Source: Dictyostelium discoideum (lineage: Eukaryota). From it: a stretch of 64,000 bases of DNA. A program made the translations under genes and the position numbers. The DNA is taken from assembly GCA_000004695.1 (NCBI GenBank), contig CM000151.3:5152001-5216000 (forward strand), in the 5' to 3' direction. Numbering within the stretch: the stretch's first letter is position 1; every line of letters begins with the position of its first letter. This document shows, piece by piece, positions 25,252 to 31,367 of this stretch. The notes under the pieces were generated by a model. It worked only from the letters and a program-made list of their open reading frames with translations. It was not told the origin of the DNA and did no database searches.

Positions 25252-27801
25252 ATAACACCAAACCTACTGTACTAACAACACAAAAAGAAATAAAATCAAA
25301 TAATAAAAAAGAAAATAACATAAATAATACAAATACACATGCAAATATCACTACAAACAATACCAGTACAAATAATAATAATAATAATAATAATAATAAT
25401 AATAATAATAATAATAATAATAATAATAATAATAATAATAATAATAATAATAATAATAATAATAATAATAATAATAATAATAATAATAATAATAATAATA
25501 ATAATAATAACAGTAATAGTAATAAGAAAAAGATAAAAGGGAAAAATAATAAAAAGAGTAACGATTCAACATCACCACCAACCACAACCACAACCACAAC
25601 CACAACCATAACAACTGAACAACAATCATCCCGACTTTCTATAAATATAACTCCACTCAACTCCTCTTCTTCAACATCAACATCTACTCCAACAACAACA
25701 ACACCATCAGTTTCAACACCAATTCCTTCAACCACCACACAAAAACCTTTATCTTCTCTTATTTTAGAACAACAACAACAACAACAACAACAACAACAAC
25801 AACAACAACAACAACAACAACAACAACAACAACAACAACAACAACAACAATTACAACAAGAACAAGAGGAAAAAGAAAAAGAAAACACACCATTATCACC
25901 ACCATCTGTACAAACACAATCACCATCAAAAACAAACTCATCAATAAATAATAGTAACACTAACAATACAACAACAACAACAACCACAACAACTGTAACA
26001 ATACCATCATTGGCAAGTTTAATTAAAGCAAAACCAGAGATATTAGATCAAAAACAAACTGAATCTGATCCATCCAATGCACTTTCACCTCAAAGTTGTT
26101 TAAAGAAGAAACAGGATTTAGAGAAAAAAATAATTTGGATGAAAAATATAGAGGAAATGCCATCAAAATCACAATTAGTTGCTCATAGATCAAGAGGTTT
26201 AATCAATACCTCAAATACTTGTTTCATGAATGTTATCCTTCAATCTTTAACAGGTTGTCAATTGTTTTTAAGGGTTATTAAAAATTTATCAGATTTAGAA
26301 GATTTAGGAAAATATCCAACTTTACATAGTTTGTATGTTTTTTTTTTTTTTTTTTTTTTTTTTACTAATTTTATTTTTTAAAATTTCCATATTAATATTC
26401 CTTTTTCAAATATAGTAACCAATTTTATACAGAATATTTTTCAAATCCTACTTCAAATATATTGAATAATAATAGTAATTCAACAACAACAACATCTTCA
26501 TCTTCAACTACAGCTACAACAACATCAACATCAAATAATAATAAATCGCAAACACCAACATCACCAATACAACAACATCATCAGAGTCAAACTAATGGTT
26601 TAAGTAATCAACCATCAGTAGCAACACAATCACAACAACAACAACAACCACAACCACCAATTAATCCGAAACATTTTAATGATTTAGTTAAATCATTTAA
26701 TTCAAAAGTATCACCAGTACCTCAAACAACCGTTTCACCTCATTCAATGGTTCAAGTTTCAAAAAAGAAATTAAAACTTCAACTTTATAATAATTCGTTA
26801 CCACAAACTATTTGTCAACAAGATGCTCAAGAATTTTTAGTATTCCTTTTAGATTTAATTCATGAAGAATTTTTAACATTAATAAGTAAGTTTTTTTTTT
26901 TTTAATAAATAAATTTAATAATTCTAATATTATGAATTAGTCACACTAACGATAACAACAAAACAAATTTCTTTATTTTCTTTTTATTTTTTTTTAAAAA
27001 AAACACAGAAGATATTGATATACCAAAAGAGGATGATAAATCAACACCAACATCAACATCAATTGTTGACGATAATTGGGAAGTAGTTGGTAAAAAGGGT
27101 AAAACTGCAATCATTACAAATGTATGTATTTTCTTTTTTTTTTTTTTTTATAAAATGAATTAATAAAAAAAAAAAAAAAAAAAAAGAAAACTAATAAAAA
27201 AAAAAAAAAACAATTAAAACAGAGTCAACAAGAATTACCAAAAACTCCAATTTCACAAATATTTTCAGGTGTTTTAAGAAGTAGTTTTAATAGAACCGGA
27301 AGTAAAGAATCAATTACAGTTGAACCATTTTATTGTTTACATTTGGATATTAGACCAGAAGAGATTAATAGTTTAGAGGATGCACTTAAATTCTTTATGA
27401 AACCAGAGATTATTGAAGGTTATACATGTTCAACTAAAAAGATTGAAATATCAGCTTCAAAGAGTTGGTCCTTTGAATCATTACCAAGAATTTTAATTGT
27501 TCATTTCAAGAGGTTTGCTTTTGAGAGTGATACTTCAAAGAAATTGGATAAATTAATTCGTTTCCCAACTCAATTATCACTTTCAACCGCTTCAAATCAT
27601 CAAACTCAAAAGAAATACTCACTATTCTCTGTCGTTAGTCATCATGGTAGAGGTTTATCTCAAGGTCATTACACTTGTGATATCTATCAACCACAACAAG
27701 CTCAATGGATTAGATATGATGATTCAACTTTTACTGAAGTAAAAGAACAAGATGTTTTAAATAGAGAAGCTTATCTATTATTATATCAACTTGTTAATTA
27801 A
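25095..27801 (+). CDS. ubiquitin carboxyl-terminal hydrolase, USP10/Ubp3 type
   Basis: Exons: 25095(open 5')..26332, 26416..26885, 27009..27121 and 27223..27801. The donors are GTATGT, GTAAGT and GTATGT, and all phases are consistent.
- Cys box: GLINTSNTCFMNVILQSL.
- QQDAQEF box.
- FSGVLRSSF...EPFYCLHLDI.
- His box: LFSVVSHHGRGLSQGHYTCDIY...WIRYDDSTFTEV...EAYLLLYQLVN*.
The long disordered N-terminus fits USP10. The true start codon is unresolved. Confidence 0.8.
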
Positions 27802-28077
27802 AAAAAAAAAAAAAAAAAAAAAAAAAAAAAAAAAAAAAAAAATTAAAATAACAATAACAATAACTATAACCATAAAGAAATAAAAATAAAGAAAAAAGAA
27901 CAAAAAAAAAAAAAAACAAAAAATAAAAAAAAAGAATTAAAAAAATAAAAAAACCTTTACTTTAAAAAAAAAATAAAAAAAACAAATAAATAAATAAAAT
28001 ATTAATCTTTATTTACCCCCAAAAAAAAACACATCTTTTTTTTAAAAGTGAAGTTTCAATATTTTAAGACTTTACCT

Positions 28078-28740
28078 TTAAAAAAAAAAAAAATAAATAA
28101 ATAAAAAATAAAATATTATCAATATTTCTTTTAAACATGCATGTTTTGGAAAAGTGTATGGAATTATGATACCTTTTAAAATGATTTTACCGTCAATGAG
28201 AATTTCGATTTCTTTATTCTCTGAATTGTAAATTATTTTTACACATTTATCAACACCATCATTGATTTCATTGAAACTATTACCCAATGAATATTGATGA
28301 CTAGTTTATAGGGATTGGTTTGGAGTTGGTCTTTGAATAGAATTATGGTTAGAACAAGGATCACCCATTTCTTGATTGCTAAATGTATCAAATTCTATTG
28401 CAATTATACCATTTGCCATTTGATTATAGCCCAACTCACTCCCAGCTTGCTTAATTTCATTAATTCCATTTGTTTGAAGAATAAAAGCAAATCCATCAGC
28501 ACCTCTTCTTGAGACATTAAATGTAAATTCACATTGAAACCCATTATCTATTGTTACTTTTTTTCTACTCCAAATTGAACCAACTTTGCCTTGTAATGAG
28601 GGTGTTAGTTGAATAATCATATCACCACCTTTTTTGTTGGAAATAATTTGGCAGATCCATTTAGTTTATAACCTTTTTCTAAATTATAATTTTCAGAATA
28701 ATCAATCATCAGTTTTAAATTAAATAAAAAATTATATGGT
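28078..28740 (-). pseudogene. inverted, decayed partial copy of the L-type lectin gene at 29844..30767
   Basis: The minus strand encodes MIIQLTPSLQGKVGSIWSRKKVTIDNGFQCEFTFNVSRRGADGFAFILQTNGINEIKQAGSELGYNQMANGIIAIEFDTF..., about 90% identical to the plus-strand gene. Three lesions are visible: a 1-nt deletion in the upstream YSENYNLEKGYKLNGSA region, an in-frame TCA->TAA nonsense change at 28306-28308, and loss of the C-terminus after PYTFPK at the inversion breakpoint (~28141). Confidence 0.7.
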
Positions 28741-29340: not shown

Positions 29341-29843
29341 CAACTTTTTAGTTGGGAAAAAAAAAAAAAAAAAAAAAAAAAAAAAAAAAAAAAAAAATAA
29401 GAATTAAAACCAAAAAAAACTTTAATTAAAATAATAACAACCATAACCAAAAGAAATGAAAAAAGAACGAAAAAAAAAACAAAAAATAAAAAAAGAATTA
29501 AAACTAAAAAACTTTACTTTTATAAAAAAAAAAAAAATAAATATTTATCTTTATTTATTCCCAAAGAAAAACACCTTTTTTTTAAAAGGCAAAAGTTTAA
29601 ATTTTTATTTGAAAATTTACCTTTAAAAAAAAAAAAGAATATAAAATATTATCAATATTTCTTCTTTTTTTTTTTCCCCCAAGTCCCAAAAAAAAAAAAA
29701 GAAAACTTTTTTTTCTTTTTTTTTTTAGAAATTTAAAATTTTTTTGAAAAAATTATTTTTAGCTTTTAAAACACGTTGGTTAATATTTTTGTTTTTTTTG
29801 TTTAAATATTTTTTTTTTTTTTTTTTAACAAATAAATTTAAAA

Positions 29844-30767
29844 ATGATAGGTGAAAAAAGAAAAAGAATTGAATTAATTAATCTACAAGAAGTTTTGAAA
29901 GGTAGAAAAAGAAATGTGAATAAAGAAAAAGTAACAGTTAAAAAAACCAAATCAAAACCAATAAAAAATTCAAAGTCAGCAATAATAACAACTAAATTCA
30001 GTTGTGTTCCTACTACCGCCATTACTACTAAAAGTCAAAGCAAAAACTTAAAAGCCCCAACAAAAACCAAACCAACAATAGAAAATGAATTTATAAAAGA
30101 AAATGATGATATTGATTATTCTGAAAATTATAATTTAGAAAAAGGTTATAAACTAAATGGATCTGCCCAAATTGTAACAAACAAAGAATGTGGTGATATG
30201 ATTATTCAACTAACACCCTCATTACAAGGCCAAGTTGGTTCAATTTGGAGTAGAAAAAAAGTAACAATAGATAATGGATTTCAATGTGAATTTACATTTA
30301 ATGTCTCAAGAAGAGGTGCTGATGGATTTGCTTTTATTCTTCAAACAAATGGAATTAATGAAATTAAGCAAATTGGGGGTGAGTTGGGCTATAATCAAAT
30401 GGCAAATGGTGTAATTGCAATAGAATTTGATACATTTCATAATCGAGAAATGGGTGATCCTTATTATAACCATATCTCAATACAAAGACCAACTCCAAAC
30501 CAATCCCTATCAACTAATCATCAATATTCGTTGGGTTCTTATCATTCCAATTCAATTAATAATGGTGTTGATCAACGTGTAAAAATAATTTACAATTCAG
30601 AGAATAAAGAAATCGAAATTCTCATTGATGGTACAATCATTTTAAAAGGTATCAAAATTCCATACACTTTTCCTAAATATGCATATTTTGGATTTACTGC
30701 TTCAACAGGAAAGCAAAAACAAATCCATCAAATAAAAGGTTGTAGATTTAATTCAGTTTTAAATTAA
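29844..30767 (+). CDS. L-type (legume-like) lectin-domain protein with basic N-terminal extension, no signal peptide
   Basis: 307-codon ORF containing:
- GYKLNGSAQIVTNKECGDMIIQLTPSLQGQVGSIWSRKKVTIDNGFQCEFTFNVS
- GADGFAFILQ
- GGELGYNQ
- AIEFDTFHNREMGDPYYNHISI
- a C-terminal FGFTASTG
These fit the concanavalin-like L-type lectin fold motifs. The N-terminus MIGEKRKRIELINLQEVLKGRKRNVNKEKVTVKKTKSKP is highly basic. Confidence 0.65.
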   Translation: MIGEKRKRIELINLQEVLKGRKRNVNKEKVTVKKTKSKPIKNSKSAIITTKFSCVPTTAITTKSQSKNLKAPTKTKPTIENEFIKENDDIDYSENYNLEKGYKLNGSAQIVTNKECGDMIIQLTPSLQGQVGSIWSRKKVTIDNGFQCEFTFNVSRRGADGFAFILQTNGINEIKQIGGELGYNQMANGVIAIEFDTFHNREMGDPYYNHISIQRPTPNQSLSTNHQYSLGSYHSNSINNGVDQRVKIIYNSENKEIEILIDGTIILKGIKIPYTFPKYAYFGFTASTGKQKQIHQIKGCRFNSVLN

Positions 30768-31367
30768 ATTTAATTAAATTAAATAAATAAATAAATTTTA
30801 TGGATAAGTTTTAAATAAATAGAAAACTTTGTTGGGGTTTATAATTTTGTTTTTTTTTTTTTTTATTATTATTTTTTAATTCTTTAAATTCATATTTTAA
30901 AAGCTTTATTAAATTATTATTTATACATATGTTGTGTTTCATTTGTTATAATTTTTCAAAGTTTTAAATTGATTAATTTATTATTTTAATACAATAAAAT
31001 TTTATTATTTATTATTAAATTTTTAATTATCTATTTGTTTGAGTTGATAGTATTATTATATCCAAATAATCTTTACCATAAACAACTACAACTTTCCACA
31101 AATTACCAATTTACAATAAACAAAAAGACCATACTCCGAATAGAAAAAAAAAAGAATATATAATTAAAATCATTTAATGATATAGGATAAAATTTTATTT
31201 AATTATAATTATTTAAAAGTTGTTTGATGTATAACAGAATTTTATTAATGTTTTATTTAAAAAAAAAAATATAAATAATAAAAAAAAAAAAAAAAAAAAA
31301 AAAAAAAAAAAAAGAATAAAAAAAAAAAATAGTATTTATAAATAGTTTTTTTTTTTTTTTTTTTTTT

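Follow-up and report, generated by a model that had tools for sequence, protein, structure and literature searches.

The 64,000-nucleotide stretch of the Dictyostelium discoideum genome analysed here (AX4 chromosome 2, contig CM000151.3 of GCA_000004695.1, positions 5,152,001 to 5,216,000; hereafter the window, whose own numbering is used throughout) contains two adjacent units in which the 3' part of a ubiquitin-specific protease (USP) gene is followed by a lectin gene. In the second unit the lectin (copy B) is an intact open reading frame (ORF) on the plus strand, whereas the remnant of the lectin in the first unit (copy A) is for the most part turned around. We consider it likely that this locus is a non-functional structural scar of two steps, namely an old tandem duplication and a later complex deletion-inversion-deletion (del-INV-del) of lectin copy A in the branch comprising the laboratory strains AX4 and AX2. 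An original prediction, made from the letters of the window, had proposed a duplication of about 2.1 kb with an internal inversion and a reciprocal decay of the two genes. The duplication and the inversion were borne out, the reciprocal decay was not.

Self-BLAST of the window, a repeat search and gapped alignment revealed that 26688-28844 and 28832-30900 are linked by six direct matches in collinear order, and also one inverted match whose arms the repeat search recovered as well. The region from 26.5 to 31 kb thus showed the direct series and the single inverted match that a self-alignment was expected to give, and the order USP 3' exons, USP-downstream flank, lectin and lectin 3' flank was found in both units. 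Adjacent collinear copies in like orientation are the hallmark of a tandem segmental duplication. Identity between the units was 86–93% in unique sequence and 76–78% in the A-rich flanks, where many small indels occur. The limits of the two adjacent units, first drawn at 26690-28850 and 28851-30900, had to be corrected to 26708-28851 and 28852 to ~30894. The copy of the USP-downstream flank in unit 2 was recovered as predicted (27802-28137 matching 29346-29663). Self-BLAST detected no further lectin copy in the 64-kb window.

The breakpoints of the inversion were set by aligning the window to direct lectin copies. In reverse complement, the segment 28133-28715 matches copy B (91.9%) as well as the direct copy A found in two other D. 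discoideum assemblies, ACTFIR (L001) and ACTFIW (L005). The inverted fragment proper, 28138-28708 on the minus strand, corresponds to ~30110-30682 of copy B, that is, to codons ~88-280. The predicted inversion is therefore real, but its position is not 28141-28735; it spans 28138-28708, with microhomologies at 28132-28137 and 28709-28715 on either side. Likewise, the lectin 3' flank of unit 1 is in direct orientation as stated, but the direct sequence resumes at 28709 rather than at 28735. The notion that the inversion flips exactly the lectin body had to be abandoned, since only the internal codons are reversed and both ends are deleted. Compared with a direct copy A, ~416 nt comprising the upstream region with the promoter and codons 1-88 are lost on one side, and ~70 nt of C-terminal codons, up to SVLN-stop, on the other. 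The equivalent of the promoter region at 29676-29843 is missing from unit 1 of the window, while it is present in unit 1 of ACTFIR and ACTFIW. A reversed internal segment with sequence lost at both breakpoints corresponds to the make-up of a delINVdel rearrangement.

At the right junction, the lectin reverse complement (...GAAACTGATGAT...) and the direct C-terminal sequence (...AATTCAGTTTTAAATTAA) have TCAGTTT in common (7/7), which is the reverse complement of the lectin motif AAACTGA at the N-terminal breakpoint. The window reads ...ATCATCAGTTTTAAATTAAAT, with the overlap at 28709-28715 and direct orientation beyond it; the unit-1 remnant TCAGTTTTAAATTAAAT is a 17-nt exact match to 30753-30769. 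For random breakpoint pairs in this sequence, a microhomology of at least 7 nt has a probability of ~0.011. At the left junction, the unit-1 flank of ACTFIR and ACTFIW reads ...TTCTTTTAAACAT and then TCCAAG..., the lectin reverse complement reads ...AAATAT and then GCATATTTAGG..., and the window reads ...TTCTTTTAAACATGCATGTTTTGG... Flank AAACAT and lectin AAATAT overlap with a 5/6 match, 2 nt of it exact. The direct lectin copies contain a perfect 14-nt palindrome, AAATATGCATATTT, which is kept in all seven of them (five assemblies), and the left junction again forms a perfect 14-nt palindrome, AAACATGCATGTTT, in which the flank AAACAT is mirrored by a lectin-side G at 28142. Symmetric substitutions in the palindrome were considered as proof of a fold-back or hairpin intermediate. 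This idea was dropped because the unit-1 flank terminates in TTTTAAACAT (28128-28137) and the same letters are already flank sequence in the relatives; half of the junction palindrome is therefore flank-derived, leaving only the G at 28142 unexplained. The restored palindrome could be due to chance (~2%) or to templated quasi-palindrome correction. Apart from the 7-nt and 6-nt microhomologies, the repeat search found no longer inverted repeats flanking 28132-28715, and non-allelic homologous recombination was therefore not the cause.

AT-rich, low-complexity regions with long homopolymers are liable to misassembly, and the locus is such a region. A mis-join affecting the orientation of the lectin body or the whole second unit was thus weighed as an alternative. 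Contig JBTAPE010000033.1 of GCA_054883475.1 also codes for exactly the lectin protein of copy B, and the locus in that assembly is 99.54% identical to the window over 21 kb (20 mismatches, 23 gap openings); it is thus an assembly made separately from almost the same genotype. Between 26600 and 31000 the sole differences are the lengths of three poly(A) tracts, and every junction and lesion is base-identical. Since an independently made Nanopore assembly has the same breakpoints, and since the duplication itself is present in three further assemblies, there is next to no probability left for an assembly error. In the Nanopore assembly, the poly(A) tracts at 27165, 27800 and 29357 lack 3, 9 and 11 nt, respectively, which could reflect true length variation or homopolymer under-calling. 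The assemblies used for comparison seem to come from a series of Nanopore de novo genomes of 2025 (PMC12745789), which covers wild isolates of the discoideum clade, of D. citrinum and of D. dimigraformum as well as the laboratory strain AX2-214; we infer that assembly L002 is AX2-214. The subject of that PNAS paper is the tgr locus and not the lectin/USP locus.

The order of events could be read from the orthologous locus in eight other assemblies, in which the lectin, the USP C-terminus and the acetyltransferase downstream of lectin B (a minus-strand MYST gene according to Pfam) were mapped by tblastn. Just one unit, in the order USP, lectin (+), acetyltransferase (-), is present in D. firmibasis, in D. 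dimigraforme, in cf. discoideum ACTFIZ and in both assemblies of D. citrinum, and tblastn revealed no USP fragment at the locus in these five genomes. In ACTFIR and ACTFIW, the two assemblies with both lectins direct (GCA_054859385.1 and GCA_054859355.1), the USP gene is followed by lectin A (+) and, beyond a short remnant of USP sequence, by lectin B (+). In cf. discoideum ACTFIY (L004) there are three units in varied states of decay. Here (L004:8900-11750), unit 1 is an N-terminal lectin fragment of codons 1-44, unit 2 consists of a USP fragment and an intact lectin, and unit 3 is a second USP fragment without lectin; the duplication junction is present twice. The acetyltransferase tree, (ACTFIZ,(ACTFIY,(AX4,(ACTFIR,ACTFIW)))), together with the unit counts, demonstrates that the duplication was gained on one branch. 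As both lectins are direct in ACTFIR and ACTFIW, the reversed state is confined to the AX4/AX2 branch. As to whether one unit or two came first, the related genomes identified one unit as ancestral and confirmed that the direct orientation of both lectins preceded the inversion. The first step was a head-to-tail duplication of ~2.1 kb that took place in the ancestor of some members of the D. discoideum clade, after the split of ACTFIZ and before that of ACTFIY.

The duplicated segment had its proximal limit in the middle of a USP exon and its distal limit where the lectin 3' flank ends. The join lies at TTTAATTCA, a 9-nt exact microhomology that the USP exon (26695-26703) has in common with the terminal part of this flank. 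The flank-side TTTAATTCA is best preserved in ACTFIR copy B. In the junction at 28840-28851, the USP exon follows directly on the lectin 3' flank, with the distal end joined to the proximal start, which is the novel junction that a tandem duplication creates; the five single-unit genomes are without it. It could be aligned in AX4, ACTFIR and ACTFIW and at both junctions of ACTFIY. A derived T>C (TTTAACTCA) was observed in five of the five junction copies from four assemblies, whereas the parental sites of every strain read TTTAATTCA (or TTTAAATTCA) and none has T>C. Because the junction copies share a derived base absent from the parental sites, a single microhomology-mediated duplication is indicated, and the alignment supports one old duplication of single origin. 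The competing assumption that tandem duplications recurred independently in each lineage at the same microhomology would account for the grouping of lectin paralogues by lineage (see below), and a junction on a 9-nt repeat could promote repeat events. However, recurrence would leave unexplained the shared TTTAACTCA in all five junction copies, the orthology of the unit-1 flanks between lineages and a ~100-nt deletion in the USP fragment (26735 to 26833) common to AX4 unit 2 and ACTFIY unit 3, and we regard it as very improbable. Following the single duplication, the ACTFIY array presumably grew to three units later, by unequal exchange. Compared with other microhomology-mediated tandem duplications, there is nothing unusual in a head-to-tail arrangement, a junction on a 9-nt repeat and a breakpoint within a gene that leaves one complete and one 5'-truncated copy; the particulars of this locus are the array of three in ACTFIY and the signs of concerted evolution in the lectins.

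The position of the proximal breakpoint also decides how the fate of the USP copies is to be read. The whole USP gene starts at ~23281; at its 3' end lie the exons 26417-26885, 27009-27121 and 27223-27801, the last of which closes with the stop codon (27799-27801). The USP 3' end of unit 1 is intact, as predicted: the spliced translation is open to the stop. The last exon, encoding the C-terminal half of the protease, matched Pfam UCH (PF00443) with 117.9 bits, and the catalytic Cys box NTCFMN, GLINTSNTCFMNVILQSL, was located at ~26200-26250; Cys box and His box domain thus stand in one reading frame, as expected of a UCH member. In the sister assembly GCA_054883475.1 the product is called with 1404 aa. 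The duplicated unit, however, starts at 26708, inside a USP exon, ~3.4 kb past the start codon and 3' of the Cys box, so that it lacks the USP promoter, the Cys box and ~3.4 kb of coding sequence. The unit-2 USP was therefore truncated from birth and never a gene. It is recognised only as remnants by tblastn, fails as a UCH member, and has suffered four larger deletions of ~103, ~70, ~125 and ~278 nt. The earlier statement that this copy retains intron sequence but has lost most exon sequence is numerically correct (72% of intron bases and 37% of exon bases are kept), but a preferential loss of exons was rejected as not significant by permutation of the four deletions (P = 0.08). The fragment is eroded further in ACTFIR and ACTFIW through different deletions.

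Reciprocal, or complementary, gene loss, as put forward in the original prediction, would mean that both units began with USP and lectin and that each duplicate lost a different gene. This would fit the present state, in which only unit 1 has a working USP end and only unit 2 a working lectin. Since the boundary at 26708 falls within a USP exon, complete copies of both genes did not exist in both units, and the lectin is the only gene of which there were ever two complete copies. Moreover, lectin copy A carries disabling changes in all three lineages that have it, while copy B is intact everywhere, a pattern without reciprocity. We thus find reciprocal loss scarcely credible. As a general caution, it is not inferable when a duplication breakpoint falls inside a gene. 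The duplication instead produced a complete USP gene, a USP 3' fragment devoid of promoter and Cys box, and two complete direct lectins. Of these, copy A now carries disabling changes, namely the inversion in AX4, an A7-run frameshift in ACTFIW and a mid-gene frameshift in ACTFIR. The frameshifts of the two wild assemblies, one each, are at different sites (L005:10200-10230 and L001:9130-9140, the A7-run one just after the start codon) and were bridged with introns by the annotators; they may represent true pseudogenisation or Nanopore homopolymer errors.

In the window, the predicted lesions of the unit-1 lectin were all found, with the addition that it is truncated at both ends and not at the C-terminus alone. 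A 1-nt deletion at ~28651 shifts the frame, TCA>TAA at codon 223 (28306-28308) introduces a nonsense codon, and two further small deletions remove 3 nt and 2 nt. The 104-aa ORF 28306-28620 on the minus strand corresponds exactly to DDB_G0275151 (XP_643808.1), annotated in AX4 as a protein-coding gene, and still gives Pfam lectin hits. It is the open stretch from the frameshift to the nonsense codon, and we interpret DDB_G0275151 as a pseudogene fragment. Copies A and B differ by 12 synonymous and 38 non-synonymous changes, and this ratio, together with the frameshift and the stop codon, points to relaxed constraint; judging from the lesions, the rearranged copy A is probably non-functional. 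Copy B, by comparison, was intact as predicted, and its 307-aa ORF is identical to the AX4 chromosome 2 gene DDB_G0275019. It exceeded the Pfam gathering thresholds for PF18483 (115.3 bits, cut-off 78.3) and PF00139 (85.9 bits, cut-off 26.3) across residues 96-304 and can thus be assigned, by domain match, to the L-type (legume-like) lectins, a domain that the inverted fragment still matches as well. Within this family, it stands out as a lineage-restricted protein of Dictyostelium that carries an N-terminal extension rich in lysine and evolves much faster than its neighbours. Its protein identity to the lectins of D. citrinum, D. dimigraforme and D. firmibasis is only 43-60%. At the nucleotide level, AX4 copy B differs from copy B of the relatives by 7.4-8.5% and the neighbouring acetyltransferase by 2.9-3.1%; between AX4 and ACTFIR, the values are 7.4% for the lectin body, 2.9% for the acetyltransferase and 0.7% for the USP last exon.

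A bootstrapped neighbour-joining tree of the ~590-nt lectin body did not recover the orthology of A with A and B with B that we had considered, but grouped the paralogues by lineage. AX4-A clustered with AX4-B (96%) and the ACTFIR/ACTFIW copies clustered together (66%). The six discoideum lectin copies excluded ACTFIY with 95.5%, although ACTFIY has the junction. As the junction is shared despite the grouping by lineage, gene conversion between the lectin paralogues, rather than independent duplication, would explain the tree, although this step is less secure than the others. Similarity along the lectin alignment is a mosaic. Gene conversion would have kept the lectin copies more alike than their age predicts.

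The second step would be a single complex del-INV-del of lectin copy A on the branch to the NC4-derived laboratory strains (AX4/AX2), in which codons ~88-280 were put back reversed and the two flanking pieces were lost at the breakpoints. The outcome of this step is directly evident from the alignments, and as there is no gap between the deletions and the inversion, parsimony favours a single event for both. Both junctions sit on microhomology, TCAGTTT (7/7) on the right and AAAyAT (5/6) within the 14-nt palindrome on the left. From these motifs, we infer microhomology-mediated end joining or two replicative template switches (forward to reverse to forward), both of which would leave such a signature. 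Fork stalling and template switching (FoSTeS) and microhomology-mediated break-induced replication (MMBIR) are related replicative template-switch models. Thereafter, passive decay would have added the frameshift and the nonsense codon of copy A and the four internal deletions of the USP fragment.

The rearrangement had been described as rarely documented, yet deletion-flanked inversions are a recognised class of complex structural variant in human genomes, termed delINVdel (Collins et al. 2017, PMC5338099). The locus agrees with this class in its reversed internal segment, the losses at both breakpoints and the novel junctions with microhomology. It differs in scale, as 0.57 kb are inverted here and ~416 and ~70 nt deleted, compared with kilobases to megabases in human events, and in that it is fixed in a lineage of haploid amoebae and lies within one member of a tandem pair, with the ancestral state taken from sister lineages and not from a parent. 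It can also be described by the four-point template-switch model (Loytynoja and Goldman 2017, PMC5453318), with point 1 at 28137, point 2 in the palindrome, point 3 at AAACTGA and point 4 at TCAGTTT, in the ancestral order 1<3<2<4. Both switches would occur on microhomology here. While the usual short switches cover tens of bases, the inverted tract measures ~570 nt.

Several observations weigh against this history. The exact microhomology at the left junction amounts to only 2 nt. Gene conversion was deduced from few informative sites (2 for AX4 A+B, 6 for ACTFIR/ACTFIW A+B and 1 for the A-type). The inversion and the deletions may have had a two-step origin, with a simple inversion first and deletions afterwards. 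Four-break end joining and template switching yield the same product, and the sequence cannot discriminate between them. Finally, the inverted piece may have been templated from B instead of A, since it is 7.5% distant from AX4 copy B but ~10% (10.1-10.5%) from copy A of the relatives. Overwriting of copy A by lectin B in inverted form, through template switching to the paralogue or inverted gene conversion, would also agree with the clustering of the fragment with AX4-B and with two derived sites common with B, as opposed to one common with the A-type copies. We nevertheless consider such overwriting unlikely. The 3' flank is of the A type, being 92% identical to the unit-1 flank of ACTFIW but 78% to the AX4-B flank, and the 5' flank ends in the unit-1-specific TTTTAAACAT. 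The mosaic similarity fits ordinary gene conversion before or after an inversion in place, and overwriting needs the same two junctions and is hence no more parsimonious than the in-place del-INV-del that we prefer.

The coordinates of all features are collected in Table 1. Some further differences were noted around the locus. The USP coding region contains long in-frame AAT and CAA runs at 25369-25520 and 25768-25850, encoding poly-Asn and poly-Gln; such tracts are typical of Dictyostelium genes. In the unit-1 intergenic flank of ACTFIW and ACTFIR (L005:9850-10020 and L001:8290-8470), ~170-200 nt are absent from both AX4 units, either as an insertion in these two assemblies or as a loss in AX4. 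In D. citrinum (L006:11076-13505 and L009:11135-13447), an extra minus-strand gene of ~770-810 aa is located between lectin and acetyltransferase. Faint FG-GAP hits were seen for it in L009, none are on record in L006, and the gene is absent from the loci of the discoideum clade.

Table 1. Features of the duplicated USP/lectin locus and matches between its two units (window coordinates).
Feature	Position	Strand	Basis or remark
USP 3' part, unit 1	26708..27801	+	spliced translation open through stop
A-rich flank downstream of USP, unit 1	27802..28137	+	matches unit 2 at 29346-29663
Left inversion junction AAACATGCATGTTT	28132..28145		alignments with direct copies
Inverted lectin fragment, copy A (putative pseudogene)	28138..28708	-	91.9% to reverse complement of copy B
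Right inversion junction, TCAGTTT microhomology	28709..28715		alignments with direct copies
Last five lectin codons, stop and lectin 3' flank, unit 1	28709..28851	+	still in direct orientation
Tandem-duplication junction TTTAACTCATAG / GTATCGCC	28840..28851		alignment across junction copies
USP fragment, unit 2	28852..29345	+	self-BLAST; tblastn detects remnants only
Copy of USP-downstream flank, unit 2	29346..29675	+	27644-28130 to 29213-29663, 76% gapped
Upstream (promoter) region of lectin copy B	29676..29843	+	homologue present in unit 1 of L001/L005
Intact predicted L-type lectin gene, copy B, 307 aa, DDB_G0275019	29844..30767	+	ORF; exact match XP_643809.1
14-nt perfect palindrome AAATATGCATATTT in lectin coding sequence	30675..30688		homologous to left inversion breakpoint
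Lectin 3' flank, unit 2	30768..30894	+	duplicated unit ends ~30892-30894 (TTTAAATTCATA)
Direct match	26688/26708-26735 to 28832/28852-28879		
Direct match	26835-26969 to 28876-29009		86%, E 8e-39
Direct match	27084-27213 to 29057-29178		86%, E 2e-39
Direct match	27336-27372 to 29181-29217		89%
Direct match	27644-28130 to 29213-29663		76% gapped, E ~1e-93 to 1e-100
Direct match	28715-28844 to 30779-30900		78%, E 7e-21
Inverted match	28133-28715 to 30688-30100		91.9%, E 0

The inverted fragment, which lies directly downstream of the USP gene, forms an inverted repeat with lectin B, with arms of ~580 nt (92% identity, longest perfect stretch 93 nt) and a spacer of ~1.4 kb. The promoter of the intact lectin and its first 88 codons lie in this spacer, which would be inverted by recombination of the two arms, disrupting the working lectin; AX4 and the sister assembly have it in the same orientation. 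One could imagine that read-through from USP yields lectin antisense RNA, that read-through as far as copy B yields a long hairpin RNA, and that RNA interference then down-regulates DDB_G0275019 in the NC4/AX4 lineage only. We see this as a long shot, but if true, it would mean that a lineage-specific regulator was derived from a pseudogene. For the annotation, the consequence is that DDB_G0275151 should be reclassified as a pseudogene fragment. A literature search under DDB_G0275151, DDB_G0275019, Q86I38, Q86I39, XP_643808 and XP_643809 found no prior description of the locus. The events are of known kinds, they reveal no new element or mechanism, and the locus is an ordinary genomic scar. 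Its value is that of a clean, fully polarised worked example, in which the long-read genomes of close relatives order every step, and duplication, concerted evolution, expansion to three units and del-INV-del can be followed with base-resolved junctions in a genome of 78% A+T. As such, it provides one data point on how errors of repair or replication shape Dictyostelium genomes.

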